64,000 bases of DNA from Eubacteriales bacterium (GCA_050943735.1 JBMNPT010000005.1:4209-68208); one strand, 5' to 3'. Positions 17,647 to 58,204 are shown, counted from the first letter of the stretch. The notes: generated by a model from the sequence alone, not told the origin. Program-made: numbers and translations.

Positions 17647-17784
17647 TGCCATTTGATTGTCGGTCCGTAACAGCATAGAATGAAAATTCACAATCCGGGA
17701 CGTGTTATGATGCGCCCCGGATTGTAGTGTGTGACCCCTTTTTATTGGAAAAGACCATTTGCGCGGAAAAGAGGAGGTAGCAGG

Positions 17785-37597: not shown

Positions 37598-38101
37598 ATG
37601 AGTACCAATCTGAAAGTATGTGTGGTAATGGGGAGCGACAGTGATCTGCCGGTCATCAAAAAATGTCTGGCCATGCTGGACAAGTTTGAGGTGTCCTATG
37701 ATGTACATGTGATCTCCGCTCACCGCACCCCCTATCAGGCCGAAGAGTTGGCCAAAAACGCCATTGCAAATGGTGTGGGCGTCATCATCGCCGCGGCGGG
37801 AAAGGCCGCTCATCTAGCTGGTGTGTTGGCCGCATACACCACATTGCCGGTGATTGGACTGCCCATTAAATCCTCTCTGATGGATGGTCTGGACTCTCTG
37901 TTGTCCATGGTACAGATGCCCAAGGGAATTCCGGTGGCTTGTGTGGCTGTGGATGGTGCTGAAAACGCAGGCATTCTGGCTGCGCAAATGCTGGCTTTGA
38001 ACGATGGGGAACTGATGGCACGTTTGATGCAGTACAAGGCCGATATGGCAGAAGAAGTGTGCCGTAAGGACAGACAGTTGAGGGAAGAATTGGGACTGTA
38101 A
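37598..38101 (+). CDS. purE: 5-(carboxyamino)imidazole ribonucleotide mutase
   Basis: [13 protein letters not shown]...HVISAHRTP. Confidence 0.93.
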
Positions 38102-38120
38102 AAGGAAAGAGAGGCGTGTG

Positions 38121-39796: not shown

Positions 39797-39866
39797 ACAC
39801 AAACAGGCTGGTGGTATGACACATCCCTCGCCAGCCCCGGATCATGGAAGATTGGAGTGACCATTT

Positions 39867-41414: not shown

Positions 41415-41428
41415 TGGAGGAGCAAACG

Positions 41429-43419: not shown

Positions 43420-43508
43420 AAGGTTTTTCCATTTCTGATTTGATAGATTCCATTGAGCTATATTATAGGGCAAATTTACTAATTTGTAAATACAAAAACA
43501 ACAAAATT

Positions 43509-43522
43509 CGAAAATTTGTTCG
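43509..43522. promoter_or_regulatory. LexA (Cheo/SOS) box 1, CGAAAATTTGTTCG
   Basis: 13 of 14 matches to the Firmicutes consensus CGAAC-N4-GTTCG. It lies 7 nt upstream of the -35. Confidence 0.6.
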
Positions 43523-43528
43523 ACTTTA

Positions 43529-43557
43529 TTGACATAAGATGGGAAATATTGTAAAGT
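43529..43557 (+). promoter_or_regulatory. promoter of the phage-like cluster regulator
   Basis: TTGACA, 17-nt spacer, TAAAGT. Confidence 0.5.
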
Positions 43558-43562
43558 AAAAT

Positions 43563-43576
43563 AGAACAAATGTTCT
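43563..43576. promoter_or_regulatory. LexA (Cheo/SOS) box 2, AGAACAAATGTTCT
   Basis: Perfect GAAC-N4-GTTC core, 6 nt downstream of the -10 and just upstream of RBS AAGGAGG. Confidence 0.7.
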
Positions 43577-43593
43577 AAAGGAGGTGCTTCATT

Positions 43594-43977
43594 ATGAATG
43601 CGGCACAGAAAATCGCGTATTTGAGTCAGTACAAACAAATAGATTTGGAAATTGATCGCATGATTCATGAAGTGGATGTGTGGAAAAAACGGTTGGAGCC
43701 TTTTTCTACAGAGGAGGAAAAAGTGAGGGTGATCCATTTACTGCGGCACATCAATCGGGAGATTGACCGATTGGTGGATCTGCGTGAAGCCATGGAACGC
43801 TCCATCCGTACTGTGGATGACAAAACTCTGCAGACCTTGTTGCGCTGCCGTTACATAGACGGGCTTACCTGGGAAGCGTTGGCGGAACAGATGGTCTATT
43901 CCTATCAGCATGTGTTTCGTCTGCACAAAAAAGCCATTGATCTTCTGGAACTGGACCAAGATGTGATACAATGCTAG
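43594..43977 (+). CDS. sigma-70 region-4-like HTH protein, phage late-gene activator candidate (positional analogue of PBSX Xpf)
   Basis: 127 aa. The C-terminal LLRCRYIDGLTWEALAEQMVYSYQHVFRLHKKAIDLL is a sigma region 4 HTH pattern. The N-terminus is a coiled coil. It is the first gene of the cluster. Confidence 0.7.
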   Translation: MNAAQKIAYLSQYKQIDLEIDRMIHEVDVWKKRLEPFSTEEEKVRVIHLLRHINREIDRLVDLREAMERSIRTVDDKTLQTLLRCRYIDGLTWEALAEQMVYSYQHVFRLHKKAIDLLELDQDVIQC

Positions 43978-44050
43978 TCCCTCTCTGTGCTACGGTATGT
44001 TTGCGGTCGGGAAACCGGCTGGCAATTCAATCACAGAGAGGAGAAGAGGA

Positions 44051-44218
44051 ATGAAAAAACTGGCAGATCAAAAGGAAATCCAGGCCTTTTGGACCTCTGT
44101 GATGCGCAGTGAGGAGGCAACCATCGCCGAACGCTTCAAAGCCTCTGAACTGCTGGCAAAAAACAGGGAAGAGGAGGCTGTGGATCTGAAACTCAAATGG
44201 TTCAAGGAAGACGAGTGA
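44051..44218 (+). CDS. 55-aa terminase small-subunit-like protein (C-terminal module only)
   Basis: It lies immediately upstream of, and overlaps, the terminase large subunit gene. ERFKASELLAKNREEE resembles the RLKALELLGK motif of small terminases. RBS GAGGAGAAGAGGA. Confidence 0.4.
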   Translation: MKKLADQKEIQAFWTSVMRSEEATIAERFKASELLAKNREEEAVDLKLKWFKEDE

Positions 44219-45444
44219 CAAAAGCACGTACTCTGCGGCGCGAGGTTTGCAATTCTTGGGTGTACAGTCAGGTGGATGACTACTCCCATCGGATTGAGGT
44301 GTACTGCGGAGGTGCGGGAAGTGGTAAGTCCTACGGCGCCATGCAGAAAATGCTTCTCAAAGCGCTCAACTACCGGCGGCGTGTGCTGGTGGTGCGCAAG
44401 GTGGCGGACACTCTGCGGGCCAGCGTATTTGAACTGCTTCTCCAATTGCTGCGGGACAGCGGTCTGTACGAAGTGGCCCGCATCCGGCGCAGCGAAATGC
44501 GTGTGACTCTGCCCGGCGGCAGTGAGTTCCTGTTCCGGGGGATTGACGACCCCGAAAAGGTGAAGTCCATCACTGGACTCACCGACATTGTCATTGAGGA
44601 AGCTACGGAACTGTCCCGGGAGGATTTCATTCAGCTCAATTTACGTCTGCGCTGCCTGGAGCCCTTTCCTCAGATTTATGTGCTGTTCAATCCCATCAGC
44701 AAAGCCAACTGGGTGTACGATCGATTTATTCTCCATCCACCCGAAAATTGCAGGCTGGTCCGCACTACCTGGAAGGACAACCGGTTCCTACCCGAAGAAT
44801 ATGGCAGGGAGCTGGAGACCATGGCCGAAACAGATCCCGTCAAGTACCGCATTTACGCGCTGGGAGAATTCGCCACGCTGGACCGGCTGGTATTTCCCCA
44901 GGTGGAGGTTCGGGCCATCTCCCCCCAGGAGGTGGAAGGGCTGCCTTTCTTCGGGGGACTGGATTTCGGCTACGTAAACGATCCTACCGCTTTGGTATGG
45001 GGACGGTATGATCGAACCAATCGTCGGATCTTCATTTTGGGGGAGTACTTTGGCAAGGGTATGCTCAATCGGCAGATCGCCGAAAAAATTCAACAGATGG
45101 GACTTTCCAAGGAAATCTGGACTGCCGACAGCAGTGAAATTAAGAGCATCGATGAGCTGCGTTCCCTGGGACTCTCCCGGGTGCGGGCCGCCCGGAAAGG
45201 TCCCGGCAGCGTTCGCTTTGGCCTGAGCTGGTTGGCAGGCAGAAGCCTGATCTTACAGGAGAACTGCCCCCGCTTGCTGGAGGAGTTCGAAAATTACACC
45301 TGGAAAAAAGATCCCCGTTCCGGGGAGTATTGCAATGAACCCATTGACAGCTGGAACCATGGCATCGATGCCCTGCGCTACGGATTGGAGCATCAGATGC
45401 GAGGCGGTGGCATGGAAGTGCTGAAATGGAACAAGGAGGTTTGA
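44197..45444 (+). CDS. terminase large subunit, PBSX/XtmB type
   Basis: Walker A VYCGGAGSGKSYG and Walker B-like LTDIVIEEATE, about 415 aa. An alternative GTG start at 44215 forms a GTGA overlap. Confidence 0.9.
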   Translation: MVQGRRVTKARTLRREVCNSWVYSQVDDYSHRIEVYCGGAGSGKSYGAMQKMLLKALNYRRRVLVVRKVADTLRASVFELLLQLLRDSGLYEVARIRRSEMRVTLPGGSEFLFRGIDDPEKVKSITGLTDIVIEEATELSREDFIQLNLRLRCLEPFPQIYVLFNPISKANWVYDRFILHPPENCRLVRTTWKDNRFLPEEYGRELETMAETDPVKYRIYALGEFATLDRLVFPQVEVRAISPQEVEGLPFFGGLDFGYVNDPTALVWGRYDRTNRRIFILGEYFGKGMLNRQIAEKIQQMGLSKEIWTADSSEIKSIDELRSLGLSRVRAARKGPGSVRFGLSWLAGRSLILQENCPRLLEEFENYTWKKDPRSGEYCNEPIDSWNHGIDALRYGLEHQMRGGGMEVLKWNKEV

Positions 45445-45445
45445 T

Positions 45446-46717
45446 ATGGCATTCACCAATGAGGAAATGGCCAGGACACTGGCCCGGGCGGTGGCCGAAC
45501 AAACTGATTTCGCCCAGCGCTGTCAGGTGGCCAGACGCTATTATCAGAATCGCAACGACATTCTCCACACCGGAGCGGTTCCCCGCTGGCAGACCCAGCC
45601 CAATCCCCTGCGCAACAGCGATGTGCGCATCAGCCACAACTGGCACAGCATTCTGGTCAATCAGAAAACATCCTATCTGTTCAGCTACGCGCCCACTCTG
45701 GATGTGGGAGATCGCAGGCTCAACGCTCGTCTGACCCAGATGCTGGGGGATGGATATGGAAAAATGATGAAGGATCTCTGTGTGGAGGCCAGCAACTGTG
45801 GGGTGGCATGGCTCTTCCTGTGGCTGGATGATGAACGGCAGCTGCAAATGCAGGTGATGGACAGCGAACAGATTGTCCCCATTTATTCGGATGATTTACA
45901 GAAAACCCTCAAGGCTGTCCTTCGTATTTACACCCAGCGGGATGAGGCCGATCAGCCGGTGACTCGATGCGAGCTGTGGGATGAGGAAACTATGCAGACC
46001 GGTCGTTGGAACGGCGGCCAATGGGTGCCTGACAATCAGCAGATCTACTATCATGGTATCGGTCAGATTCCCTTTATTCCCTTCTGGAACAATGGAGAGG
46101 GAACTGGCGACCTGGAGATGTACCAAGGTCTGATTGATCAATACGATCGGGTGGTGAGCGGATTTGCCAACGATCTGGCAGACATTCAGGAGGTGATCTT
46201 CGTCATCCGCAATTACGGAGGCGAGGATTTGGGGACCTTCCTGGGTGAGCTCAAACGGTACAAGGCCATCAAGGTGGACAGCGACGGCGGTAACAGCGGT
46301 GTGGACACCATGCAGATTCAGATTCCGGTGGAGGCTCGTATGGAGTTCCTGGAACTGCTCAAAAAGCAGATCTTTATCTCCGGTCATGGGGTATTCCCCG
46401 CTCAGGACAATCTGCCCAACACCAGCGGGGTGGCTTTGCAGTACATGTACAGTCTGCTGGAGATCAAAGCGGGCTTGCTGGAAGTGGAGTTCCGTCAGAG
46501 TCTGGCCCAACTGGCCCGTCTGCTGCTGCGGCACATGGGCTGCCGCAAAGAACTGACCATCCGTCAGACCTGGATCCGCAATGCCATCCGCAATGAGACG
46601 GAACTGGCGCAGATCTGTGCGGACAGCAGTCAGCTGCTCAGCCGTGAAACCATTCTGCGGCATCATCCCTGGGTGGAAGATCCACAGGAAGAGATGGAGT
46701 CGGACGGTCAGGAATGA
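45446..46717 (+). CDS. portal protein, SPP1 Gp6-like
   Basis: 423 aa. ARRYYQNRNDILH...LRNSDVRISHNWHSILVNQKTSYLF matches the Gp6-family N-terminal pattern. It follows the terminase gene. Confidence 0.85.
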   Translation: MAFTNEEMARTLARAVAEQTDFAQRCQVARRYYQNRNDILHTGAVPRWQTQPNPLRNSDVRISHNWHSILVNQKTSYLFSYAPTLDVGDRRLNARLTQMLGDGYGKMMKDLCVEASNCGVAWLFLWLDDERQLQMQVMDSEQIVPIYSDDLQKTLKAVLRIYTQRDEADQPVTRCELWDEETMQTGRWNGGQWVPDNQQIYYHGIGQIPFIPFWNNGEGTGDLEMYQGLIDQYDRVVSGFANDLADIQEVIFVIRNYGGEDLGTFLGELKRYKAIKVDSDGGNSGVDTMQIQIPVEARMEFLELLKKQIFISGHGVFPAQDNLPNTSGVALQYMYSLLEIKAGLLEVEFRQSLAQLARLLLRHMGCRKELTIRQTWIRNAIRNETELAQICADSSQLLSRETILRHHPWVEDPQEEMESDGQE

Positions 46718-46771
46718 ACATGTGGTGAGGGGAGGATCCCGGGTGTGTGGTGGGAAACAAGGAGGAATACC

Positions 46772-47215
46772 ATGGAACAGAATAACTTGTCTGCTGCCGC
46801 TGTACTGGCCCAGATTGTACAGCTGATGCAGCAATATGCGGGGATGCAGTCGGCACCAGCCGCTGGTATGCCCCAGAGCACTGGCGGAGATGATCCGCTG
46901 ACCCGTCTGCAAGAGGAAAACAGACAGCTGCAATCCCGTCTGCAGCTCAGCCAGCAGGATATGCTGCTGGAACGGGCTCTGCTGAAAGCAGGCTGCCGCA
47001 ATACCACTGCGGCCAAAGCTTTGGTACAGCCTCAGTGGCTGGAAGGAGAGCAGGCTTTGCAGCCTGAGGAGATTGTACAGGCTTTGATGGAAGAGGCCCC
47101 CTATTTGTTTGAAGAGCCTCAGCCTCTGGGCTATCGTCCTGTGGCCGGTCAGGGTCAGGACTCGGAAGAGGCTCTGCGGGAAATGATTCGCAAAGGTTTG
47201 AGAGGAGAGATGTGA
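46772..47215 (+). CDS. capsid scaffolding protein
   Basis: About 147 aa, helical and coiled coil (LQEENRQLQSRLQLSQQDMLLERALL). It sits between the portal and the major capsid. RBS AAGGAGG. Confidence 0.65.
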   Translation: MEQNNLSAAAVLAQIVQLMQQYAGMQSAPAAGMPQSTGGDDPLTRLQEENRQLQSRLQLSQQDMLLERALLKAGCRNTTAAKALVQPQWLEGEQALQPEEIVQALMEEAPYLFEEPQPLGYRPVAGQGQDSEEALREMIRKGLRGEM

Positions 47216-47216
47216 G

Positions 47217-48128
47217 ATGGCATTTAACACACTGGAATTTGCAAAGGTATTTCAGAAGGAACTGGACAAGCTGGTGGTGGCACAGTGCACCAGCGGCTGG
47301 ATGGAAAGCAACGCCGGTATGATTCAGTACAGCGGCGGTGATGAAATCAAAATTCCCATGCTGACTGTGGATGGTCTGGCGGATTATGATCGGGAAGATG
47401 GCTTTACCCGCGGTGCAGTCAATCTGAGCTTCCAGACCCTGAAGCTCAGCCAGGACAGAGGCAGAAGTTTTCAGATCGACGCCATGGATGTGGATGAAAC
47501 CAGCTTTGGCGCCAGCGTGAGCAATATTGTGGGAGAGTTTCAGCGCAGCCGCGTAGTACCTGAGATTGACAGCTATCGTTACAGCCGCATTGCTACGCTG
47601 TGCAGTGCAGACCATGCCACTACTTATACGGCGGATGCTTCTACCATTCTGACAACGCTGCGGTCCGATATTGAAAACATCTACGAAAAGGCCGGTGAAA
47701 TCGATCTGGTGATCACCCTGTCTTCCGCCGCAGCCAATCTGCTGGAAGGCAGCAGTGAATTCAACGCCATGGTGGACGCCGGTGATTTCAAGAGTGGAGA
47801 ATACTCCTGCCGCGTACGTTATTTCAATGGCAATCCCATTGTACGTGTCCCCAGTGCTCGTATGAAATCGGCCTATACCTTCTATGATGGTGTGACCGAA
47901 GGACAGACCGCCGGCGGTTTTGTGCCCGCCCCAGAAGCCAAGCAGATCAACTGGATCATCAGCAGCCGCACCGCTCCCATTGCAGTATCCAAAACCGATC
48001 AGGTGCGGATTTTCGATCCCCTGCACAACCAGAGCATGAACGCCTGGAAGGTGGATTACCGCAAGTACCATGATCTCTTTGTACCCACCAACAAGCTGGA
48101 TGAAATGTGGGTCAACATGGAGGGGTAA
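47217..48128 (+). CDS. major capsid protein (XkdG/YqbE-like)
   Basis: 303 aa, assigned by position and sequence style (MAFNTLEFAKVFQKELDK...). Confidence 0.8.
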   Translation: MAFNTLEFAKVFQKELDKLVVAQCTSGWMESNAGMIQYSGGDEIKIPMLTVDGLADYDREDGFTRGAVNLSFQTLKLSQDRGRSFQIDAMDVDETSFGASVSNIVGEFQRSRVVPEIDSYRYSRIATLCSADHATTYTADASTILTTLRSDIENIYEKAGEIDLVITLSSAAANLLEGSSEFNAMVDAGDFKSGEYSCRVRYFNGNPIVRVPSARMKSAYTFYDGVTEGQTAGGFVPAPEAKQINWIISSRTAPIAVSKTDQVRIFDPLHNQSMNAWKVDYRKYHDLFVPTNKLDEMWVNMEG

Positions 48129-48130
48129 TC

Positions 48131-48424
48131 ATGGATATGGAAGTCCTGGCACAGCGCCTCCTGCAGCGGGAACCGGCACTGGAAACCAGGGAGACCGCTC
48201 TGGAACGCCTGGAAGAGGCGGCCCAGCGGATTCGAAATTATACCCATCTGGATGAGGTGCCGGATGAACTGGAAGGGGTACTGCTCTCCATGGCACAGCG
48301 CCTGGAGGAAGAGGGCGTGGAAGCCATTTACGAAGGGGACACCAAGGTGCAGTACGCTCATACAGAGCCGGAAGCTCTATATTACTCCCAACTCAACCGG
48401 TTCCGAAAGAGGTGCGGACCATGA
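48131..48424 (+). CDS. head-tail connector protein (gp6-like/YqbG-like)
   Basis: 97 aa and helical. It is the first small ORF after the capsid gene. Confidence 0.6.
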   Translation: MDMEVLAQRLLQREPALETRETALERLEEAAQRIRNYTHLDEVPDELEGVLLSMAQRLEEEGVEAIYEGDTKVQYAHTEPEALYYSQLNRFRKRCGP

Positions 48425-48777
48425 CCAGTCGGATTCTACAGCGGCTGATGAATCAACGAGGAGACATCTGGCGCGGTGAAAAACGGGTGGAAAATGGTGT
48501 GCAATTTGTGGAATACCAACTGCTGCAGAGTGGCGTACCCTGCCGGGTATCCCAGATTGGCACTGGGCGTACCATCCTGAAAAAACCTCAGGGAGAGGAA
48601 CTCTCTGAAATTGAGCAGGAGCTCAAAGGCTTTTTTCCATGGGACGCAGATGTACAGAGTGGCGATCGGCTGGTGGTGACCCTGAACAAAACCCAGCACA
48701 TTCTGGAGGTGGGTGAGGTTTTTGTATACCAAAACTCCCACCGGGAGTGTAGACTGAGCCGTTTGCAGACGGTATGA
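48421..48777 (+). CDS. head closure / head-tail adaptor protein
   Basis: 118 aa with an ATGA overlap with the preceding ORF. Beta-rich pattern typical of SPP1 gp16-like proteins. Confidence 0.6.
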   Translation: MTSRILQRLMNQRGDIWRGEKRVENGVQFVEYQLLQSGVPCRVSQIGTGRTILKKPQGEELSEIEQELKGFFPWDADVQSGDRLVVTLNKTQHILEVGEVFVYQNSHRECRLSRLQTV

Positions 48778-48791
48778 AAGGAGAGGGTGAA

Positions 48792-49211
48792 ATGGAACAG
48801 CAAATTCGGCAGGCACTGGTTAAAGCACTGGGTGATGCCCTGCCCCAGTGCCCTCTTCACACCGAGCGGATGCCTCAGCATGGAATTCGAGACGGGCTGT
48901 GGATCTATCCAGCGGGGCTGGGTCTGGAAGGACGCATTGGCTGTCAGGAGGCCTGGTCACAATGGGAGATTCGCTATCTGCCGCCGATGGAAACACCCAG
49001 ACAAACCATGGTCGAACGACTCCGCCAAGTGGTGGAAGCTGTACAGACTTTGCAGCTGGACGACGGGCCCCTGCGGCCTGTCATCCAGCAGGCAGAGTGC
49101 GACGGTTCCATGGCAGTGGTGCTTTTGCGTGTGAGATGCAGGGTGCGCATTGAACAATCTTCTCCCATGATGCGCAAATTCACCTGGGAGATGGAAATGG
49201 AGGGAAATTGA
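48792..49211 (+). CDS. tail-completion/neck protein candidate
   Basis: 139 aa with RBS GGAGAGGG. It is the last ORF before the sheath gene. Function is assigned by position only. Confidence 0.5.
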   Translation: MEQQIRQALVKALGDALPQCPLHTERMPQHGIRDGLWIYPAGLGLEGRIGCQEAWSQWEIRYLPPMETPRQTMVERLRQVVEAVQTLQLDDGPLRPVIQQAECDGSMAVVLLRVRCRVRIEQSSPMMRKFTWEMEMEGN

Positions 49212-50495
49212 GTGAACAATACGGGAAATAAAACGTTGCCCGGCGTTTATGTGGATTTTATCAGCAGCCGCCCGCTCACCATTCAGGTGGGCAGTCAGGG
49301 GACTGTACTGCTGCCCATGGCGCTGGATTGGGGCGACAAGGGAAAGGTCACCGAAGTGGTGGCCGGAGATGATACACGTCTCTCTCTGGGATACAGCATG
49401 CAGGAGATTCTGCCTCTGCGGGAGGCTATGAAAAATGCTGACCGGGTACTGGTGTATAAGCTCAACGGCGGAGAAAAAGCTTCCGCGACACTGGGAAGCG
49501 GAACGGTAACTGCCGCTCTGCCCGGCAGCCGTGGAAATGCACTTTCTCTTCAGGTGACTGGCGAGGAAGCTCCCTTTGTGGTGGATACCTGGCTGGATGG
49601 TGTTCTGATGGACAGCCAGGAAATTTCGGAGTATTCCGAATTTCAGCCCAATGGGCTGGTGGAGATCAATGAGGCAGGCACTCCTGCCAAGGCTTTGGTC
49701 ACCCTTTCCGGCGGTACGGATGAAGAGGAACAGACCACCGACTGGGAGAGCTTTTTGCCATCCGCCCAGACCCTTTTCTTTGACACAATGGCTTGTATGA
49801 GTGACGAAGAATCGGTGAAGGAACAGGTGGTGTCTTTTGTACGGCTGATGCGGGAACAGGAAGGCAAAAAGATTCAGGCAGTGATGGCCAACAAGGCGGC
49901 CGATTACGAGGGTATCATCTCGGTACAGGGTGGCGTGGTACTGGAGGGGGATGAAATTCTCCCTGCGGAAACCGTATGCGCTTATATTGCCGGCATGACC
50001 GCGGGCGCTGCCATCAATGAGAGCTGCACCCATCACATTTACCAGGGTGCGGTGGATGTGACCAGTCGGATGACCCGCGCTCAAAAAGAAGAGGCAGTTG
50101 GTCAGGGTCACATGATTCTGGATGTGGACGCCGCCGGTCAGGTGTATGTGGTCTATGATATCAATACCCTGCGCTCCGGTCTGCAGGTTGACTTCCGTAA
50201 AAACCGGGTGCTGCGGGTACTGGATGGGATTCATCAGGATGTGAAGTCTCTCTTTGAGGGCAGCTATCTGGGTAAGGTGAGCAATGACCCCAACGGCCGC
50301 AGTCTGCTGCGGGGCAGTTTGGTGGAATACTTTGGCAAGCTGGAACAGATGGGCGCCATCACCGGCTTCCAGAGCGATGACATTTCGGTAGAGCCCGGCA
50401 GCGATTCCGACAGTGTGATCATTGGCATTGCTGTGGCTCCGGTGGACAGTTGTGAAAAATTCTACATCACCGTACAGGTGAACCAGGAGGTGTAA
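49212..50495 (+). CDS. contractile tail sheath protein (XkdK-like)
   Basis: 427 aa. The N-terminal LPGVYVDF is typical of sheath proteins. GTG start after RBS GGAGGG. Confidence 0.88.
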   Translation: MNNTGNKTLPGVYVDFISSRPLTIQVGSQGTVLLPMALDWGDKGKVTEVVAGDDTRLSLGYSMQEILPLREAMKNADRVLVYKLNGGEKASATLGSGTVTAALPGSRGNALSLQVTGEEAPFVVDTWLDGVLMDSQEISEYSEFQPNGLVEINEAGTPAKALVTLSGGTDEEEQTTDWESFLPSAQTLFFDTMACMSDEESVKEQVVSFVRLMREQEGKKIQAVMANKAADYEGIISVQGGVVLEGDEILPAETVCAYIAGMTAGAAINESCTHHIYQGAVDVTSRMTRAQKEEAVGQGHMILDVDAAGQVYVVYDINTLRSGLQVDFRKNRVLRVLDGIHQDVKSLFEGSYLGKVSNDPNGRSLLRGSLVEYFGKLEQMGAITGFQSDDISVEPGSDSDSVIIGIAVAPVDSCEKFYITVQVNQEV

Positions 50496-50496
50496 T

Positions 50497-50970
50497 ATGG
50501 CCAATTATGTGAGATTGCGGGATACCATCTCCTCCAAGGAGGGACGGGCCTACATCACCATCAATGGGAAAAATAGAGAACTGTTTGAAATCAGCCGCCT
50601 CAAGGCTTCTTTGCAGTACAAAATTCAAAAACGTCAGATGCTGGGCCATCGTATGGTGCAGCACAAGGTGGTAGGAGCTGAGGGCACCGGTGAAATGACA
50701 ATGTATTTCATGAACAGCGAAATGCTACAGCTGGCCCGTCAGTACATCAAAGAGGGCAACCCGGGCTCTCTCAAACTGCAGGTGGTCAATGAGGATAGCG
50801 CCAGCAGTGTGGGCCGTCAAGAAGTGATGCTGCTCAACGTAATGCTGGAACAGGTGCCCATCACCTGTCTGGATGACAGCTCGGACGATCCGGTAACCAT
50901 CAGCTGCAGCTTCACCTTTGACGATATCGAAGTGCTGGAGAGCTTTGCTCTGCCGGAAAACTATCGATAA
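50497..50970 (+). CDS. tail tube protein (XkdM-like)
   Basis: 157 aa, directly after the sheath gene. Sequence includes EGRAYITINGKNRELFEISRLKA... Confidence 0.85.
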   Translation: MANYVRLRDTISSKEGRAYITINGKNRELFEISRLKASLQYKIQKRQMLGHRMVQHKVVGAEGTGEMTMYFMNSEMLQLARQYIKEGNPGSLKLQVVNEDSASSVGRQEVMLLNVMLEQVPITCLDDSSDDPVTISCSFTFDDIEVLESFALPENYR

Positions 50971-50982
50971 CAGGTGCGGACG

Positions 50983-51492
50983 ATGGAACCGGAGGTTTAC
51001 GCCGCACGTTGGGCGGAAGAGTCAGAACCGTTGGCGGAAGAACTGATACAGCTTCAGGAGATGGAAGATTCCATTCAGCAACAGGAATCATGGATGGAAC
51101 CGGTGCAGGATGTGGGGGCACAGGTCGCCGGGGAGGAGAGCCTTCAGAGTGCCGAATCCCAGGAAATGCTTGCTGCGGTATCGGAGATTTCTGTGGATGG
51201 AGAAGAAACTACAGGGAGTGGAGAATGGAGCCCTCAAAATCCGCTCCTATTTACGGAGTCTGCTCCGGCAGCCTCGACTACACAGCAGCTTTGGACTCAA
51301 ACACTACTCCAGGCAGCCGCTTGGAATACTCTACGCCAGGAGTCCAGTCAGCAGGTGGTGAACAACATCGCGCCCAACATTGTGATCGAAATGGGCAATC
51401 CGGTGGCAGGTACCACTCCCCAGGCTGTGGCTGAGCAGATTCGCCGGACCTTGCGGGAAGAAATGCTGTGCTGTGCAGAGGGGGTGTACTAA
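50983..51492 (+). CDS. 169-aa acidic E/Q/S-rich protein in the tape-measure position (possible miniature tape measure)
   Basis: Intact ORF with SD-like AGGTG 6 nt upstream and a TAATG overlap with the next gene. The C-terminal NIAPNIVIEMGNPVAGTTPQAVAEQIRRTLREEM resembles, from memory, tape-measure C-termini. Function is uncertain. Confidence 0.5.
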   Translation: MEPEVYAARWAEESEPLAEELIQLQEMEDSIQQQESWMEPVQDVGAQVAGEESLQSAESQEMLAAVSEISVDGEETTGSGEWSPQNPLLFTESAPAASTTQQLWTQTLLQAAAWNTLRQESSQQVVNNIAPNIVIEMGNPVAGTTPQAVAEQIRRTLREEMLCCAEGVY

Positions 51493-52082
51493 TGGAATAT
51501 TGTGTGTATTTGACAGAGGGAGCCAGACGGTATCCACTGCCGGTCAATCCTCAGAATATACGGTCCAGTTGGGAGAGTGGTGCCCGGCAGACCGCGGTAT
51601 TGGGGATTGGACAGGTGGTACTGCCCGGAGAAGAAACCCTGGAGCATTTTACCTTTACCGTTCCGCTGGACAATGAGTGGGTGTCGCGGCTGCGCCGGTG
51701 GCGTTCGCAGGGTACTGTACTCACTATGCAGGCGATAGGCAAACAGCTTTACCTGCAGCGGGAAGTGATTCTGTATCGAATGACTCAGACCCAGCTGGCT
51801 GGCCGGGAAGAGGAGTGTGAAGTGGAATTGGAATGGATGGAATACCGGGGGTACCGCAAAGCGGAGCTGCTGCGTAAGCAGTGGCAGGAGGAAGGAAGTC
51901 TTTCTGCCCCGGTATCCTCCGGCGCTACCTATACGGTGGTCAAAGGGGATTGTCTGTGGCGCATTGCGCAGCGAATGCTGGGGGATGGCAGCCGGTATGG
52001 GGAAATTTATCAGCTCAATCAGGACATCATCACCAATCCCAATTTGATCTATCCGGGGCAAGTTCTGCGGCTGCCCGGCTGA
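51492..52082 (+). CDS. LysM-domain tail protein (XkdP-like)
   Basis: The N-terminal YPLPVNPQNI...FTFTVPL resembles XkdP-type tail proteins. The C-terminal LysM is TYTVVKGDCLWRIAQR...IYPGQVLRLPG. Confidence 0.8.
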   Translation: MEYCVYLTEGARRYPLPVNPQNIRSSWESGARQTAVLGIGQVVLPGEETLEHFTFTVPLDNEWVSRLRRWRSQGTVLTMQAIGKQLYLQREVILYRMTQTQLAGREEECEVELEWMEYRGYRKAELLRKQWQEEGSLSAPVSSGATYTVVKGDCLWRIAQRMLGDGSRYGEIYQLNQDIITNPNLIYPGQVLRLPG

Positions 52083-52098
52083 CAGAAAGGAGAACTTC

Positions 52099-52587
52099 AT
52101 GGGAACTTTGGAAGGATTTTTACACCCGGAGGAAATGGGACCCGTTCGGGTCCCCCTTTCTCCCCGGTTTCGGGATGAACAGGGAAATCCCATTCAATGG
52201 GAGCTGCGTCCTGTATCTGCCCGGGAAAACGAAGCGCTGATCCGCCGGCACACCCGACAGGATACCCAGGGAAACTGGAGATTGGATCGAGCAGCCTATC
52301 GCATGGCCTTTGCAGCCTGCGGGGTGGGGTGTCCCGACTTGGAGGATGCCCAGCTGCAGCAGCGTTACCACGCGCTGGGACGGGAAGATCTGTTGGGGCG
52401 GATGCTGCTGGCGGGAGAATTTGCGGCTCTCTATGAAAAAGTGAGCCGTATCAGCGGCTTTGGACACTCTCTGGAAGATGAGGTGGACGAAGCAAAAAAA
52501 GAATCCGGCACGGTGAGTGGGAATTCGCCTGCGCCCACTATGCCCTTCAGCGGCATCACCTGCTGCCCGGACAGTTCGCAGCCCTGA
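52099..52587 (+). CDS. XkdN-like tail assembly chaperone (short, zero-frame form)
   Basis: SPRFRDEQGNPIQWELRPVSARENEAL...LLGRMLLAGEFAALYEKVSRISGF is an XkdN-family pattern. It contains an A7 slippery site at 52494-52500. Confidence 0.75.
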   Translation: MGTLEGFLHPEEMGPVRVPLSPRFRDEQGNPIQWELRPVSARENEALIRRHTRQDTQGNWRLDRAAYRMAFAACGVGCPDLEDAQLQQRYHALGREDLLGRMLLAGEFAALYEKVSRISGFGHSLEDEVDEAKKESGTVSGNSPAPTMPFSGITCCPDSSQP

Positions 52588-52643
52588 GCAGGCGGGAAAA
52601 AGCATTCATCTGGGCTTCGGCCCTGGTGGAAAAGGAGGGATGA
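52494..52643 (+). other. predicted -1 programmed frameshift site (A_AAA_AAA) and 47-codon -1 frame extension of the chaperone
   Basis: The zero frame reads GCA AAA AAA GAA. The -1 frame from 52500 reads RIRHGEWEFACAHYALQRHHLLPGQFAALSRREKAFIWASALVEKEG and stops at 52641-52643, 1 nt before the next ATG. Confidence 0.55.
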
Positions 52644-52644
52644 C

Positions 52645-53598
52645 ATGCAGCTGTGGCTGGAAAACAGACAAACCGGTCAGATGGTGGAAATCACCGGCGC
52701 TTGTGTGGAAATTCAGCTGTGTCATAAGCGCAACAATGGAGCCTCCGTTTTGGATGTGACCTGGCTGTGTGAAGAGGTGTTCTTTGAAAATGGATGCACC
52801 ATTCGGCTCACCGATGGACAGCAATGTGCTTTTCACGGGAGGCTTTTCAGATGGAGCCGATCCAGCGACGGATTGGTTCACCTGCACGCGTACGATCAGC
52901 TGCGCTATCTAAAAGCCAAGGACACCATGCTTTTGCAAGGCCGTTCCCTGGCCAGCCTATTGCGGGAAATGTGCCGGGTCTTTCAGCTGAAAGCGGGCAC
53001 TATGGAAGATCCGCCGGGCTTGGTACAGGATGAAATGCTGGTGGGTCAAACGCTGCTGGACATTCTGTATCGCAAAATCGCAGAAGTACAGCGCCTCACC
53101 GGCAAAGCGTATATTCTGCGGGACGAGGACGGAGCCATCTGTCTTCGGGCGGAGGATTCTCTGCATCTGCCGCTGTTGCTGGCGGATGAGACCACCTGCC
53201 TTTCCTATGAGGTGGAGAGAGATATTGACCGGGATACCTGCAATCGGGTGGTACTGGCTCACGAAAGCATCGTGTTTGGCATGCGCAAGGTCTATGAGAC
53301 AGCGGACGCCCAGCAGACCCAGCAGTATGGGGTTTTGCAGTATTATCAGCGGGTGAATCAGAATCTCACGTCAGCTCAAATCCGCGCCATCGGTGAAAAT
53401 CTGCTGGCGGAAAAAAAGGGAGAGAGATACCGCATATCCCTGTCGGCGATCTCTGATCTCTCTGTACAGGGTGGGAGTGTGATTGGCGTTACACTGGATG
53501 GCCTGGGACAGGGATTGTATCGGGTTTTGCAGGTCACCCATCGGCTGCAGAGCGGACGGGAGACCATGGAATTGGAGGTGGAAAATATTGCTGGATGA
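52645..53598 (+). CDS. XkdQ/YqbQ-like baseplate hub (gpD-like) protein
   Basis: 317 aa, assigned by position and sequence pattern (LHAYDQLRYLKAKDT..., GKAYILRDEDGAICL). Confidence 0.75.
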   Translation: MQLWLENRQTGQMVEITGACVEIQLCHKRNNGASVLDVTWLCEEVFFENGCTIRLTDGQQCAFHGRLFRWSRSSDGLVHLHAYDQLRYLKAKDTMLLQGRSLASLLREMCRVFQLKAGTMEDPPGLVQDEMLVGQTLLDILYRKIAEVQRLTGKAYILRDEDGAICLRAEDSLHLPLLLADETTCLSYEVERDIDRDTCNRVVLAHESIVFGMRKVYETADAQQTQQYGVLQYYQRVNQNLTSAQIRAIGENLLAEKKGERYRISLSAISDLSVQGGSVIGVTLDGLGQGLYRVLQVTHRLQSGRETMELEVENIAG

Positions 53599-53851
53599 AA
53601 TTAAGGAAATCGCCCAGCGTGTGGTGGACAGCAACACCTTTTTACAGCTGGGAACCGGACGGGTGCGTTCGGTCAGCCCCTTGACGGTGGAATTGACCTC
53701 CAATGGGCTGGTGCTGCCCAATGTGATGTTGATGGTAGGAGCCTCTCTGAGTGAGAGCGACCGCTTTCAAAATCTGGAAGGCGGAGAGCAGCTGTTGCTG
53801 CTGGGCCCCGCTTGCGGCGGGAAATTTGCAGTATTGGACGTGATGCTATGA
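53588..53851 (+). CDS. XkdR-like small baseplate protein (DUF2577-like)
   Basis: 87 aa from TTG 53588, which lies 7 nt after GGAGGTG. Sequence LLDEIKEIAQRVVDSN...GRVRSVSPLTVEL. Confidence 0.65.
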   Translation: MLDEIKEIAQRVVDSNTFLQLGTGRVRSVSPLTVELTSNGLVLPNVMLMVGASLSESDRFQNLEGGEQLLLLGPACGGKFAVLDVML

Positions 53852-54237
53852 CCGGCGCAGGATATGAAACCATTTGGGATAAAGCCCTGGAAGGCCCCAG
53901 CCGCACCTTCTGTATTTCTCTGGAAAACGGAAGGATGCAGGGAATGTGTGACGGCGTGGAAAGCGTACGTCAGGCGGTGTGGAAATGCCTGGCCACCCAG
54001 CGGGGAGAGCATTTGATCTATGGCCCCTATTACGGGCTGGATCGAAATGCACTGGTACAGGCGGATCCCGCCCAATTGCAGGCTGCCGCGGAACAGGCTG
54101 TCCGCAGCGCTCTATTGCGGGACCCCAGAGTCTGGTCGGTGGATCGGGTACAGGCCCTCCGTCAGGGTGACAGCCTTTCCCTGACGGTGGAAGTGACCAC
54201 CCGGTTTGGTACCGTCCAGTTGACAGAGGAGGTGTGA
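53848..54237 (+). CDS. XkdS-like baseplate protein (DUF2634-like, gpW/gp25-like)
   Basis: 129 aa with an ATGA overlap. VRQAVWKCLATQRGEHLIYGPYYGL is typical of this family. Confidence 0.7.
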   Translation: MTGAGYETIWDKALEGPSRTFCISLENGRMQGMCDGVESVRQAVWKCLATQRGEHLIYGPYYGLDRNALVQADPAQLQAAAEQAVRSALLRDPRVWSVDRVQALRQGDSLSLTVEVTTRFGTVQLTEEV

Positions 54238-54238
54238 G

Positions 54239-55315
54239 ATGTTTGAAGAAATGACCTTTGATAAATTGATGGAGGGAATGCTTTCCCATGTGAGTGACAC
54301 CCTGGACAAACGGGAAGGCAGTGTGGTGTACGACATGCTTTCCCCTATGGCGGCAGAACTTGCCGGGCATTACAGCCAGCTGGGAGCGGCACTGGAACTG
54401 CTGTTCTGGGAAACCTCCTCCGGCATTTGGTTGGATCGCTTGGGAGAACAGTTTGGCATTCCCCGCCGTCAGGCTACCAATGCAGTGTACCGGGGTGTTT
54501 TTACCGATCAGGAGGACTTGCCTGCTCAGGTGGAAACCGGCAGTCGGTTTCGCTGGGAGGAATATACTTTCGCGGTAGAGGATTCTCTGGGAGAGGGAAA
54601 GTATACGCTGGTTTGTGAGCAACCGGGAAGCGGTGCCAATGCGGCTACCGGAACCATTCTCCCGGTGCTCAATCTGCCCTCTCTGCAGTCGGCAGTGCTG
54701 GAACAGCTGCTGGAAGAAGGAACTGACCAGGAAAGCGATGAACAGTACAGGGCCCGGGCGATGGAGCTGCTGGCGCGTCCCGCCTTTGCGGGCAATATAT
54801 CTGCCTATCAGGAAGAGACGTTGTCCATTGGGGGAGTGGGATGTGTCAAGGTTTTCCCCGTCTTTGATGGAGGCGGTACAGTGGGGCTGGTGATTGGAAA
54901 CGCCCAGGGACGTGCAGTGGATGAAATGGTACTGCAAAAAGTACAGGAGCATTATGCGCTGGAGGGAGAACAGAGCGTCACTCCCATTGGCCATCAGGTG
55001 ACTGTCAAAAGCTGTGTGGATCGGACTGTACCAGTGGAGCTGGCGGTGGATTTGGTGCCGGAGGCTGACTGGAGCAGTGTACAGTCACAGGTTCAGAATC
55101 GGGTGGCCCAATGGATGAGTCAGATTGATTTTGAGGAAGAGAGAGTGTTTGTAGCGCGGCTGATGGCGGCAGTACTGGAGGTGGACGGTGTGGCTGACGT
55201 CCCCATGGCTCAGGTGAAGCTGGATGGCAAAAATGCCAATCTGGTGCTGCAAAAAGATATGGAAACTTTTGAAACACCGGTCTGCGGAACAGTGACGGTA
55301 AGGCAGGTGAGCTGA
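54239..55315 (+). CDS. baseplate J-like protein (XkdT-like)
   Basis: 358 aa. The N-terminus is typical of baseplate J (MLSHVSDTLDKREGSVVYDMLSPMAAEL). Confidence 0.85.
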   Translation: MFEEMTFDKLMEGMLSHVSDTLDKREGSVVYDMLSPMAAELAGHYSQLGAALELLFWETSSGIWLDRLGEQFGIPRRQATNAVYRGVFTDQEDLPAQVETGSRFRWEEYTFAVEDSLGEGKYTLVCEQPGSGANAATGTILPVLNLPSLQSAVLEQLLEEGTDQESDEQYRARAMELLARPAFAGNISAYQEETLSIGGVGCVKVFPVFDGGGTVGLVIGNAQGRAVDEMVLQKVQEHYALEGEQSVTPIGHQVTVKSCVDRTVPVELAVDLVPEADWSSVQSQVQNRVAQWMSQIDFEEERVFVARLMAAVLEVDGVADVPMAQVKLDGKNANLVLQKDMETFETPVCGTVTVRQVS

Positions 55316-55316
55316 T

Positions 55317-55874
55317 TTGTGGTGTGAAGAGGAAATTCGCCTGCAGGAACATTTGCCTCAGTGGTATGCCGGGATCCGTGAGGCGGCGCTGATTCAGCAG
55401 GGAGCCCAGACAGAACTGGAAAACTTCCGCGTGACATTGCACGATGGTTTGCGGACCATCTGTACCTTGGCTCTGGAACCTACTGTTTTGGAGATTTACC
55501 GACGCATGTTTCAGCTGGAACCACAGAGCCATCCGGAAAAGCAGATGGATATTATTCGTTCCTGTTTTCAAAGCCGGCTGCCCATCAATCAGAATCGGGT
55601 GGAGCAGGTGGGCATGACTCTGATGGGGGAAAACAGTCAACTCCGATTGGATATCGACAGAGAAAAATATATCTGTCATGCCAAGTATAAGGCCGATATG
55701 TCCCAAAACAGAGAAGAGACCATTTACGCGAAGCTGCGGGCTATGATCCCAGCCAATATGATTCTTTCTCTGGCCTATGATTACGTGGAATGGGGACAAA
55801 TTCAGCACATCACCTGGCAGCAGGCAGCCACCCTCACCTGGGATGGACTGCGGCAGCAAGGGGATTCACTATAG
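55317..55874 (+). CDS. XkdU/YmfQ-like tail protein (DUF2313-like)
   Basis: 185 aa, TTG start. LPQWYAGIREAALIQQGAQTELENF is a family-typical N-terminus. It is the last gene of the cluster. Confidence 0.7.
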   Translation: MWCEEEIRLQEHLPQWYAGIREAALIQQGAQTELENFRVTLHDGLRTICTLALEPTVLEIYRRMFQLEPQSHPEKQMDIIRSCFQSRLPINQNRVEQVGMTLMGENSQLRLDIDREKYICHAKYKADMSQNREETIYAKLRAMIPANMILSLAYDYVEWGQIQHITWQQAATLTWDGLRQQGDSL

Positions 55875-56012: not shown

Positions 56013-56744
56013 ATGGAAAAAATCAACATCAGAGGCATTGCCTTTGACAATGTGACGCTGGAACAAGCGGTGAATCGAGTTCTTGCTTTCACTGAAACAC
56101 CCGGCGCAAAAATGGTGGTCACCCCCAATTCCGAGATTGTGCAAATCTGTCTGGAGGACCCCCAGGTGGCGCAGGTGGTGTCCCGGGGAGATCTGATCAT
56201 CCCCGATGGCATTGGTGTGGTGTACGCTTCCAAAATATTGGGAACACCTCTCAAGCAGAAGGTGGCGGGGTTTGACTTGGCTGCCGCTCTGTTGCCTGAG
56301 TTGGAAAAGCGGGGCATTGGACTGTTTTTGCTGGGCAGCGCTCCGGGAGTAGCACAGGAGGCCGCCAGACGGATGCAGCAGCAGTATCCGGAGCTTTTGA
56401 TTTCCGGGACCCATGACGGCTATTTCCAGGAGGATGAGCCGGTGATCGAACAGATCAATGAGAGTGGTGCGCAGGTGCTGTTTGTGTGTCTGGGCGCCCC
56501 CAAACAGGAAAAATGGATGGAGGCAAACCGGGACAAGCTGCAGGTTCGGGCCATGCTGGGACTGGGCGGCAGTTTGGATGTGTTTGCGGGCAATGTGAAA
56601 CGGGCACCCGATATTTATATCAAGCTGGGACTGGAGTGGCTGTACCGGCTGATGAAGGAGCCATGGCGATACAAGAGAATGGCGAAACTGCCCCAGTTCC
56701 TGTTGGGAACCATAGCCTGTAAGATGAAGGGAAAAGGTGGATAA
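56013..56744 (+). CDS. WecB/TagA/CpsF family glycosyltransferase
   Basis: 243 aa. VTPNSEIV...LGAPKQEKWM are family-typical motifs. Confidence 0.88.
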   Translation: MEKINIRGIAFDNVTLEQAVNRVLAFTETPGAKMVVTPNSEIVQICLEDPQVAQVVSRGDLIIPDGIGVVYASKILGTPLKQKVAGFDLAAALLPELEKRGIGLFLLGSAPGVAQEAARRMQQQYPELLISGTHDGYFQEDEPVIEQINESGAQVLFVCLGAPKQEKWMEANRDKLQVRAMLGLGGSLDVFAGNVKRAPDIYIKLGLEWLYRLMKEPWRYKRMAKLPQFLLGTIACKMKGKGG

Positions 56745-56745
56745 A

Positions 56746-57513
56746 ATGAGTGAACTGAAAGTGGCTCTTCTGGCCTATACGCCGGAGCCCCAGAAGACGG
56801 TGGCCTGTGGTGCTAAAATGTGCTATTCCGCATCGGGCGTGCAGGAAATCCGGGAGGGACTCACCCCTGAGAAGGTGGACTCCTTTTTGCAGATGCTGGC
56901 TGAGCTGGGTCATGGCAGTGTGTTTGAGCACGCCTATTTTACCTTTGGAATTGAAGGGGTTTCCCGTAGTTTGCTGGCACAGCTCACCCGGCACCGCATT
57001 GCCAGCTACAGTGTGAAATCTCAACGGTATGTGCGGGAAGGCCAGTTTCAGTTTGTCATTCCACCGGAAATTGACGCCATCCCTCAGGCCCGAGAGAGAT
57101 TCCTGCAGGCCATGGAGGAGGACCAGCGGGCCTATGATGAACTGACTGAAATTCTGCGGACAAAGCATCTGCAAAGATTGCTGGAAGAGGGGATTCCCGA
57201 AAAGAGAGCCACTTCCATGGCCGAAAAACAGGCCATTGAAGACGCGCGGTTTGTACTGCCCAACGCCTGTGAAACCAAACTGGTCATGACCATTAACGCC
57301 CGGTCTTTGTTCAACTTTTTCCAGGAACGGTGCTGCAACCGGGCTCAGTGGGAAATCCGGGCGCTGGCCATGGAAATGCTGCGGCTGGTGCGGGAGGTGG
57401 CGCCCACCATCTTCGCCAATGCCGGCCCTGCCTGTCTGCGGGGAGATTGCCCGGAGGGCAAGATGACCTGCGGCAAAGTCAAAGAAGTGCGGGAGAGATT
57501 TTCTCATGTGTAG
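56746..57513 (+). CDS. thyX: FAD-dependent thymidylate synthase
   Basis: ThyX signature RHRIASYSVKSQRY. Confidence 0.93.
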   Translation: MSELKVALLAYTPEPQKTVACGAKMCYSASGVQEIREGLTPEKVDSFLQMLAELGHGSVFEHAYFTFGIEGVSRSLLAQLTRHRIASYSVKSQRYVREGQFQFVIPPEIDAIPQARERFLQAMEEDQRAYDELTEILRTKHLQRLLEEGIPEKRATSMAEKQAIEDARFVLPNACETKLVMTINARSLFNFFQERCCNRAQWEIRALAMEMLRLVREVAPTIFANAGPACLRGDCPEGKMTCGKVKEVRERFSHV

Positions 57514-58204
57514 TAAAAAGGGCAAGTTGATTGTGCTGGACGGAGTGGACAGCAGCGGGAAGGAAACCCAGACCCGTTTGTTGGCCCAGACGCTGGAGGC
57601 GGAAGGATGGCCGGTGAAAATGGTTTCCTTTCCCCGGTATGACAGGCCTTACAGCGCGCCGGTGCGGATGTATCTGGATGGAGCCTTTGGCAGTCGGCCT
57701 CAGGATGTGAATCCCTATGCGGCCTCCACCTTTTACGCGGTGGATCGCTTTGCCTCCTTTCGGGAGGAGTGGGGAAGCTGGCTGGAACAGGGTGGAATTG
57801 TGCTGGCGGATCGCTATACCACTTCCAATGCCATTCATCAGGGCGTAAAGCTGGATGGACAGCAGCGGCTGGACTTTTTCCGCTGGCTGTATCAGCTGGA
57901 GTTTGAGCAGATGGGGCTGCCCAGACCCGATTTGGTGCTGTTTTTGGACATGCCCCCCGCCATGGCGATGCAGCTGATGAAAGAACGGCGCAACAAAGCC
58001 ACTGGCGGCACACAAAAGGACATTCATGAAAGAGATGGGGAGTATTTGAATCGCTGCTATGACGCGGCCTGTGAGGCCTGTGGGTTTTATGGCTGGCGGA
58101 GGGTGCGCAGTGTGGTGGAGGGCCGCCTGCGTTCCCTGGAGGAGATTCATCAGGAGATTGTGCAAATGGTACGGGAGTCATTGGGGGACGGCCCGTCGGT
58201 GTAA
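57506..58204 (+). CDS. tmk: dTMP kinase
   Basis: LIVLDGVDSSGKETQ P-loop. It overlaps the thyX stop by 8 nt. Confidence 0.9.
   Translation: MCSKKGKLIVLDGVDSSGKETQTRLLAQTLEAEGWPVKMVSFPRYDRPYSAPVRMYLDGAFGSRPQDVNPYAASTFYAVDRFASFREEWGSWLEQGGIVLADRYTTSNAIHQGVKLDGQQRLDFFRWLYQLEFEQMGLPRPDLVLFLDMPPAMAMQLMKERRNKATGGTQKDIHERDGEYLNRCYDAACEACGFYGWRRVRSVVEGRLRSLEEIHQEIVQMVRESLGDGPSV

Follow-up and report, generated by a model that had tools for sequence, protein, structure and literature searches.

A probable miniature tape-measure protein in a compact phage-like gene cluster with a predicted very short contractile tail

A probable quarter-length tape-measure gene

We analysed a stretch of 64,000 nucleotides from an Eubacteriales bacterium (GCA_050943735.1 JBMNPT010000005.1:4209-68208; referred to as the window), focusing on an open reading frame (ORF) of 169 aa at 50983-51492 on the plus strand, which lies between the tail tube gene and the baseplate genes of a phage-like cluster. 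Judging from sequence comparison, this ORF probably encodes a miniature tape-measure protein (TMP), which is maintained by selection in a compact and chromosomally fixed cluster and predicts a contractile tail well below the length of any described so far. The protein consists of a short conserved N-terminal motif, a poorly conserved acidic and Q-rich middle, and a conserved C-terminal TMP motif. Its C-terminus is homologous to those of TMPs, the gene architecture around it is conserved between loci, the gene is under purifying selection, and the neighbouring chaperone gene retains its frameshift site.

The tail tube gene (XkdM-like; 50497-50970; PF09393, E 3e-36) is followed by the 169-aa ORF, the genes for an XkdP-like LysM baseplate protein (51495-52082; PF01476, E 2e-11; phrog_380, E 2e-31) and an XkdN-type tail assembly chaperone (52099-52587, 162 aa in the zero frame; PF08890, E 2e-32), and the gene for a YQBQ/XkdQ-like baseplate hub protein (52645-53598; PF24032, E 7e-65), all on the plus strand. 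An earlier interpretation made from the DNA alone (the sequence-only reading) had described a gap of 1.67 kb between the tube and hub genes, occupied by the 169-aa protein, a LysM protein and the chaperone; the measured gap is 1,674 bp, and the gene calls and family matches agree with this content. The same reading had noted that the 169-aa protein is very acidic, in agreement with its pI of 4.05 and its content of D+E (17.2%) relative to K+R (3.0%); Q accounts for 11.2% and S+T for 14.8% of the residues. The ORF starts with ATG, preceded by an AGGTG ribosome-binding site, and an alternative GTG start is located at 50974. Its product is annotated as a hypothetical protein in the metagenome-assembled genome (MAG) 'Eubacteriales bacterium' (MGI6030915.1), and gave no match to any Pfam or PHROG family.

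The position between the tube gene and the LysM and hub genes is that of a tape-measure gene; both the window and seven related loci have a short ORF of this type there. The headline of the sequence-only reading, that no tape-measure gene is present, is strictly wrong, because the ORF itself bears a TMP C-terminus; the locus is better described as carrying a quarter-length tape-measure gene.

Homology of the C-terminal region to tape-measure proteins

The C-terminal 43 residues of the protein (residues 127-169, NNIAPNIVIEMG...LREEMLCCAEGVY; 51361-51489 on the plus strand) are homologous to the extreme C-terminus of PBSX-type TMPs. By BLASTP, the window protein matched the C-terminus of the TMP of a related phage, L005, with 35% identity over 40 aa (E 7e-5), and the orthologue from a related compact locus, L004, matched the TMP of phage L006 with 67% identity over 43 aa (E 3e-17). 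Comparison by hhalign of the family profile with a profile of four canonical TMP C-termini gave a probability of 98.3% (E 1.3e-14) over 43 columns, and this match reached the last residues of both profiles, end to end; hhalign detected no homology upstream of the 43-column motif. The same motif is matched at the extreme end of the TMP annotated in Clostridium phage phiCT9441A (667 aa), and closes the 457-aa TMP of an IMG/VR myophage. The consensus of the last ~45 residues in the family alignment is ...V.NH(I/L).PNI.I..G...........VA...R..L.EEM..C.EGV(Y/W), and canonical TMP termini carry the same motif, for example ...TLAPNIQVTFGDVRETADVNQVQKVLTKMLEEQIAVVAEGAM. The comparator TMPs are genuine, with matches to PF20155 TMP_3 (E ~1e-44) and to the solved TMP chain 9occ_M (E 2e-12). 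These alignments indicate that the 169-aa ORF derives from a TMP. The resemblance to TMP C-termini suspected in the sequence-only reading is thus borne out by both BLASTP and hhalign, and the minimal TMP that it preferred, with the ordered C-terminus as the end that docks in the hub, is supported by direct C-terminal homology to bona fide TMPs.

The comparison with TMP families was positive for the profile-profile match of the C-terminal 43 residues, and negative for the TMP_3 domain. None of the 13 members of the mini-TMP family contains TMP_3 (PF20155) or any other TMP Pfam domain, since searches at E values of up to 1 yielded just scattered chance matches. The mini proteins also differ in hydrophobicity: their maximum in a 19-residue Kyte-Doolittle window is 0.75 or lower, compared with 2.5-2.8 in canonical TMPs, and several transmembrane-like segments were found in all four canonical TMPs and in none of the mini proteins. 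In sequence searches of the PDB, neither the mini-TMP profile nor the profile of canonical TMP C-termini led to a meaningful match with a solved homologue, and the assignment of the motif as a docking site is therefore based on general knowledge of TMPs.

An AlphaFold2 (AF2) monomer model of the 169-aa protein had a mean predicted local distance difference test score (pLDDT) of 50, with helices at residues 18-34, 99-117 and 146-165 and the rest unstructured. For the helix at 146-165, the 10-residue blocks from residue 141 averaged pLDDT 68, 84 and 70. In the family alignment, strong conservation is confined to the two ends, the N-terminal motif (MDAEQ.A...) and the last ~45 residues. The spacer between them is fast-evolving, acidic and Q-rich, and mostly predicted to be disordered, with some helix.

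Related loci and conserved gene order

Related loci were collected via the sheath protein, since single-protein searches with the 169-aa protein were nearly empty: a word-index search returned nothing but the protein itself, a tblastn search of 50,697 phage genomes with the whole protein gave no match, and a full HMMER scan brought up one more homologue, of 156 aa, among 1.8 billion representatives. A search with a profile built from the short proteins yielded 12 clusters, with lengths of 169-268 aa. The mini-TMP family thus comprises 13 members of 156-268 aa.

The three closest loci, L001, L002 and L004, have sheath identities of 52-57% and short proteins of 218, 268 and 175 aa, respectively. 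Their genes are arranged in the order tube, short protein, LysM, XkdN and YQBQ, and the clusters finish at the XkdU-like gene without fibres. Two of the clusters found with the profile, L008 and L009, were read in context and had the same architecture, in addition to the host flank found in L001 and L002. In all seven loci read, the tube, mini-TMP and LysM genes follow one another in this order, and all but the truncated L007 contig continue to the hub gene. The lengths of the short protein cluster by subclade, being mostly 215-219 aa in one (with outliers of 208 and 268 aa) and 156-175 aa in the other.

The next tier, with a sheath identity of 45%, is made up of two ordinary PBSX-like phages, L005 and L006. 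Their tail genes run from the tube through XkdN, an ORF of ~60 aa, the TMP (619 or 631 aa) and LysM to YQBQ, followed by fibres and XkdX, and they also carry a full small terminase (TerS) and a Mu-F-like head protein. The chaperone gene is therefore displaced, being located downstream of LysM in the compact loci and upstream of the TMP in the canonical relatives. A small clade thus shares two derived features, the short TMP form and the displaced chaperone, and because the short form is common to the loci of this clade, it is not a lesion of the present strain. A recent in-frame deletion was rejected on the same ground, as all orthologous loci are short (156-268 aa); the sequence-only reading had named long TMPs in orthologous loci, with a recent deletion here, as a case that would refute it, and this case fails. 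No TMP was found within 10 kb in any orthologous locus. A spurious ORF was also rejected, based on the 13 homologues at the same genomic position and on a ratio of nonsynonymous to synonymous substitution rates (dN/dS) below 1 (0.25).

Further scans widened the set of relatives to a limited extent. A scan of genome contigs with the single hub protein returned nothing, and a scan with a capsid alignment returned 80 loci, none above 56% identity, all of which are ordinary phages or have other tail types, with the exception of L013. A scan of metagenome contigs found nothing, and a scan of viral contigs found one ordinary myophage with a 457-aa TMP. In L013 (13742-20471; Clostridia bacterium MGBC000103, a mouse gut MAG), the tail genes form a third arrangement: tube, a first XkdN copy, LysM, YQBQ hub, a second XkdN copy (122 aa), a 429-aa protein, and XkdR, S, T and U. 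This locus has no fibres, and an S24/HTH repressor is located upstream. The 429-aa protein is K/E/Q-rich and of low complexity and has no Pfam match, and no TMP motif was found between the tube and the hub; the low-complexity protein after the second chaperone may be another divergent TMP.

Selection on the gene and the putative chaperone frameshift

The dN/dS values were computed on the least saturated pair of loci, L001-L008 (dS 0.21). For the mini-TMP gene, the ratio was 0.25 over its full length, 0.27 in the middle and 0.12 in the last 50 codons, while the neighbouring LysM and hub genes gave 0.06 and 0.04, respectively. These values indicate that the mini-TMP gene is constrained, more loosely than its neighbours.

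The XkdN gene contains a slippery heptamer, A_AAA_AAA (52494-52500, plus strand), as a putative site of programmed -1 frameshifting. Its six-A run is invariant in the seven aligned loci, five of them compact and two from true phages. The -1 frame encodes RIRHGEWEFACAHYALQRHHLLPGQFAALSRREKAFIWASALVEKEG; its homology to the -1 extensions of all the loci, phages included, is clear, and the peptide ...YALQRHHLLPGQFAALSRREKAFIWAS is kept in all of them. Frameshifting would yield a protein of 181 aa whose reading frame stops at 52643, two bases upstream of the start codon of the hub gene. The zero-frame product is longer in the window than in its relatives (162 aa versus 135-140 aa), with the stop codon located further downstream. 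Chaperone pairs of the lambda gpG/gpGT type hold the TMP and recruit tube subunits in TMP-templated tube assembly. By analogy, retention of the chaperone pair would be hard to explain without a TMP client.

Proposed mechanism and predicted tail length

The TMP rule established for lambda gpH assigns ~0.15 nm of tail to each residue, from which the sequence-only reading derived a tail of ~25 nm for the 169-aa protein. By extrapolation at this rate, the family of 156-268 residues would give predicted tails of ~23-40 nm, or 6-10 rings at a ring rise of 3.9 nm (PMC11948020), while the tails of the canonical relatives would be ~69-100 nm by the same rule.

The mini-TMP keeps the ~43-residue C-terminal module of PBSX-type TMPs and has lost the N-terminal TMP_3 domain and the hydrophobic segments. 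In the mechanism that we propose, an oligomer of the TMP would dock by its C-termini in the hub/needle complex, formed by the YQBQ, XkdR-like and LysM proteins. The TMP is trimeric in RcGTA, the gene transfer agent (GTA) of Rhodobacter capsulatus (PMC7296036), and in phiCD508, in which a C-terminal 'lazo' domain docks the TMP in the hub/needle (PMC11948020). The XkdN chaperone and its frameshift-extended form would then hold the TMP in an assembly-competent state, and tube and sheath would polymerise around the TMP as far as its N-terminus, where the terminator would cap the tail. The remaining ~125 residues would template a very short tube and sheath. We infer that the protein serves as a ruler, that the tail has the corresponding length, and that particles are produced.

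The hydrophobic segments of T4 gp29 and phiCD508 gp59 have been proposed to help form a membrane channel (PMC11948020). The mini-TMPs lack such segments, which suggests that the particle forms no membrane conduit of its own.

Several points weigh against this interpretation. No particle or tail has been seen, and all family members come from MAGs or metagenome contigs. The spacer is poorly conserved, length-variable and predicted to be disordered (residues 27-104 have pLDDT <50 in the AF2 model), and a disordered spacer would suit a ruler less well than a coiled coil. The C-terminus of the window protein (EMGNPVAGTTPQAV) diverges from the canonical FGDVRETADVNQV; no Pfam, PHROG or PDB match supports a structural role beyond the C-terminal motif; and the search for a second TMP was confined to the 64-kb window. 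Moreover, a sheath of 25-40 nm that contracts by 20-50% would expose ~5-20 nm of tube, short of a typical Gram-positive envelope, which measures ~37 nm in C. difficile (PMC11948020). This short stroke could be accommodated either if the hosts are thin-walled, or if delivery stops in the wall and is followed by uptake by the recipient, as in RcGTA (PMC7296036); otherwise, the particle may have another role.

Alternative explanations

A different function for the same protein is conceivable, although we consider it unlikely: the TMP C-terminus would be kept as a plug or initiator to nucleate or plug the hub and tube, with no measuring of length, and the length of the tail would be set by subunit supply, terminator kinetics or the neck, or would be variable. 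Such a function would be consistent with the fast-evolving, low-complexity, length-variable and predictedly disordered middle, with strong conservation at the termini only, and with the missing N-terminal TMP_3 domain. However, the middle is still under purifying selection (omega 0.27), the lengths cluster within subclades instead of drifting freely, and the chaperone and its frameshift extension, which serve TMP-templated assembly in lambda (gpG/gpGT), are retained. Persistence of the short form and of the gene order across lineages with sheath identities of just 52-57%, with all ORFs intact, argues in turn against a decaying prophage remnant, in which a large deletion in the TMP gene would have left the ORF as a relic and no tail would be assembled. 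Even though the cluster is without fibre, lysis and lysogeny genes and its TMP is a quarter of the normal size, as might be found in a remnant, we regard this explanation as very unlikely, because dN/dS is below 1 for the mini-TMP gene and much lower for its neighbours, and both the frameshift site and the chromosomal position are conserved.

We give equally little credence to a conventional long TMP encoded elsewhere in the genome, with the 169-aa protein as an accessory. RcGTA and FpGTA (the GTA of Faecalibacterium) do place fibres and lysis functions at separate loci (PMC12946183), and the window represents 64 kb of a 137-kb contig. The 169-aa protein, however, already bears the TMP docking motif, at the TMP position beside LysM, and a second TMP is therefore unnecessary. 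Besides the absence of a TMP within 10 kb in the orthologous loci, a scan of 10 large ORFs from other parts of the window revealed no conventional TMP; all are housekeeping genes (YfhO, mannitol dehydrogenase, GroEL, pyruvate kinase, ABC transporter, amidohydrolases and YceG). A miniature TMP under selection is, in our assessment, the probable explanation.

Gene content and apparent domestication of the cluster

The cluster spans 12.3 kb (43594-55874) and consists of co-oriented, tightly packed genes for the head and the contractile tail, all on the plus strand and all with intact ORFs. Its first gene (43594-43977) encodes a putative regulator of 127 aa similar to DUF1492 and sigma-70 region 4 (DUF1492, E 5e-4; Sigma70_r4, E 3e-3), and shares 45% identity with its positional counterpart in L001, also a DUF1492 gene. 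A promoter-like sequence, TTGACA-17-TAAAGT, is located just upstream of this gene on the plus strand (43529-43557), and a divergent one, TTTACA-17-TATAAT, on the minus strand (43490-43462); promoter-like sites are no more numerous in this region than expected from shuffled sequence. Between purD and the cluster lies a 324-aa ORF on the minus strand (42763-43737), which has no Pfam or PHROG match and is hydrophobic and membrane-protein-like in its C-terminal two-thirds. The 5' end of this ORF overlaps the DUF1492-like gene, and its real start is therefore probably internal, near MEPMTAAERQ.

The second gene of the cluster (43997-44218) encodes a truncated small-terminase-like protein of at most 73 aa, which aligns only to residues 65-118 of the 148-aa Terminase_2 TerS of L006 (E 7e-5). 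It is 55% identical to a 98-aa ORF located before the large terminase gene in L001, and has no Pfam or PHROG match. The alignment is suggestive of a protein without the N-terminal DNA-recognition part, as reported for the small terminases of GTAs. The head genes that follow encode the large terminase (44197-45444; PF04466, E 8e-54; PF17288; phrog_3717), an SPP1 gp6-like portal (45446-46717; PF05133, E 3e-99), a scaffolding protein (46745-47215; PF06810, E 1e-7; phrog_194) and a major capsid protein of 303 aa (47217-48128; phrog_422, E 6e-96), which is 65% identical to its L001 and L004 orthologues. Three neck genes (48107-49211) encode two head-tail adaptors (48107-48424 and 48412-48777) and a tail-terminator-like protein (48774-49211); phrog_132 and phrog_615 were matched among them, and the orthologues of the third gene match PF20765 Phage_tail_terminator_8.

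The contractile tail sheath gene (XkdK-like; 49212-50495; PF04984, PF17482 and PF22671; phrog_279, E 2e-101) precedes the tube gene. Downstream of the hub gene are those for an XkdR-like DUF2577 protein of 87 aa (53588-53851; PF10844, E 4e-4), 40% identical to the L004 and L001 orthologues, an XkdS-like (gp25-like) sheath initiator (53812-54237; PF10934, E 1e-17), an XkdT-like baseplate J protein (54239-55315; PF04865, E 9e-48) and, as the last gene, an XkdU-like (Mu gp48-like) baseplate protein (55317-55874; phrog_521, E 2e-10). The listed TTG start of the XkdS-like gene overlaps the XkdR-like gene by 40 nt, while an ATG at 53848 gives the usual 4-nt ATGA overlap and is probably the true start. 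Very long antisense ORFs, for example those of 515, 444 and 1038 aa on the minus strand (48957-50504, 45896-47230 and 16444-19560, respectively), lie opposite well-supported plus-strand genes all along the window, and are most likely stop-poor shadow frames rather than genes.

No tail fibre, holin, endolysin, integrase, repressor or replication gene was found within the cluster, att-like direct repeats flanking it occur at chance level only, and its GC content is that of the neighbourhood. It is flanked by purE-purM-purN-purH-purD on the left (37577-42694) and by WecG/TagA, ThyX and Tmk on the right (56013-58204). L004 shares the WecG and ThyX right flank with the window; the host WecG and ThyX proteins of the two are 74-79% identical, and the element's own proteins 24-69%. 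L001, L002, L008 and L009 share another right flank, composed of a 76-aa ORF, DUF1292, an SNF transporter and a Cys/Met pyridoxal-phosphate (PLP) enzyme. As in GTAs, structural genes are thus found without a replication, integration or lysogeny module and at a conserved chromosomal site, the latter by comparison of right-hand flanks in a few genomes. Altogether, the cluster looks like a domesticated PBSX-like, GTA-like particle element. Neither this character nor the displaced position of the chaperone gene and its frameshift site had been noted in the sequence-only reading. A capsid-forming phage-inducible chromosomal island was rejected because the cluster has tail genes and lacks both an integrase and a replication module.

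Significance

The literature searched contained no account of this element and none of a contractile system whose TMP is so short. Myophages noted for 'unusually short' contractile tails have tails of ~81 nm (PMC3391216). Every canonical TMP among the related loci read is 457-667 aa, and a TMP of 156-268 aa alongside a sheath and a tube implies a tail of ~23-40 nm. Such a tail would show the minimum length at which a contractile machine assembles and works, and what a TMP needs beyond its hub-docking end; if the reading is true, the natural series of 156-268 aa would readily allow the TMP ruler rule to be tested, along with the smallest stroke with which a contractile injection machine can work.

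The cluster is also a candidate myovirus-type GTA locus in Clostridia, where GTA-like DNA packaging has been reported with no loci identified beyond Faecalibacterium (PMC12946183). It is possible, and we suggest it tentatively, that the clade represents unrecognised, vertically inherited myovirus-type GTAs (or head-bearing tailocins) of Clostridia, whose tails have been shrunk by the mini-TMP to ~6-10 rings with loss of the membrane-channel segments. If this is true, such a GTA-type particle would deliver DNA only into the cell wall and leave uptake to the recipient, as RcGTA does. These sequence-based proposals, built on genomes of uncultured bacteria, are of real interest to specialists in tail assembly and GTAs.

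Comparison with known systems

The closest comparators are the PBSX-type myophage TMPs (XkdO-like), represented by phiCT9441A, L005, L006 and L091. These TMPs and the mini-TMPs share the homologous extreme C-terminal 43 residues, both are encoded immediately upstream of the XkdP-like LysM gene, and the myophages and the window have the same tail module of XkdK, M, N, P, Q, R, S, T and U. The two groups differ in size (156-268 aa for the mini-TMPs versus 457-667 aa), and the mini-TMPs, unlike the PBSX-type TMPs, are acidic (pI ~4-5) and have neither TMP_3 nor transmembrane-like segments.

PBSX of Bacillus subtilis resembles the cluster in its structural gene families, small head, fixed chromosomal location and non-replicative nature. 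Unlike the cluster studied here, PBSX has tail fibres and lysis genes, a long TMP (XkdO, ~1,300 aa) and a tail that reaches ~200 nm, compared with the much shorter one predicted here. PBSX has been cited as the only earlier Gram-positive GTA-like system before FpGTA (PMC12946183). FpGTA itself is a compact head-gene operon in Clostridia that is near-ubiquitous in Faecalibacterium; its TerS has no obvious DNA-binding domain, and its fibre and lysis genes are at a second locus (PMC12946183). By description, FpGTA is podovirus-like and, unlike the cluster, has no sheath, tube or TMP. GTA-like packaging has also been reported in Oscillospiraceae and Christensenellales without identified loci (PMC12946183).

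RcGTA is the nearest precedent for a short TMP. Its TMP, g11 (Rcc01694), has ~216 residues and forms a trimer that fills the tail channel, and its tail consists of five tube hexamers and measures 49 nm (PMC7296036). By description, RcGTA shares with the cluster a short TMP, the apparent nature of a domesticated phage-derived particle and a miniaturised tail, which is predicted for the cluster, but differs in its non-contractile siphovirus-type tail, its Gram-negative host and a TMP described as a helical rod with tail-needle features. The shrinkage proposed here would parallel that of the RcGTA TMP and tail, which suggests by analogy that domestication repeatedly shortens tails.

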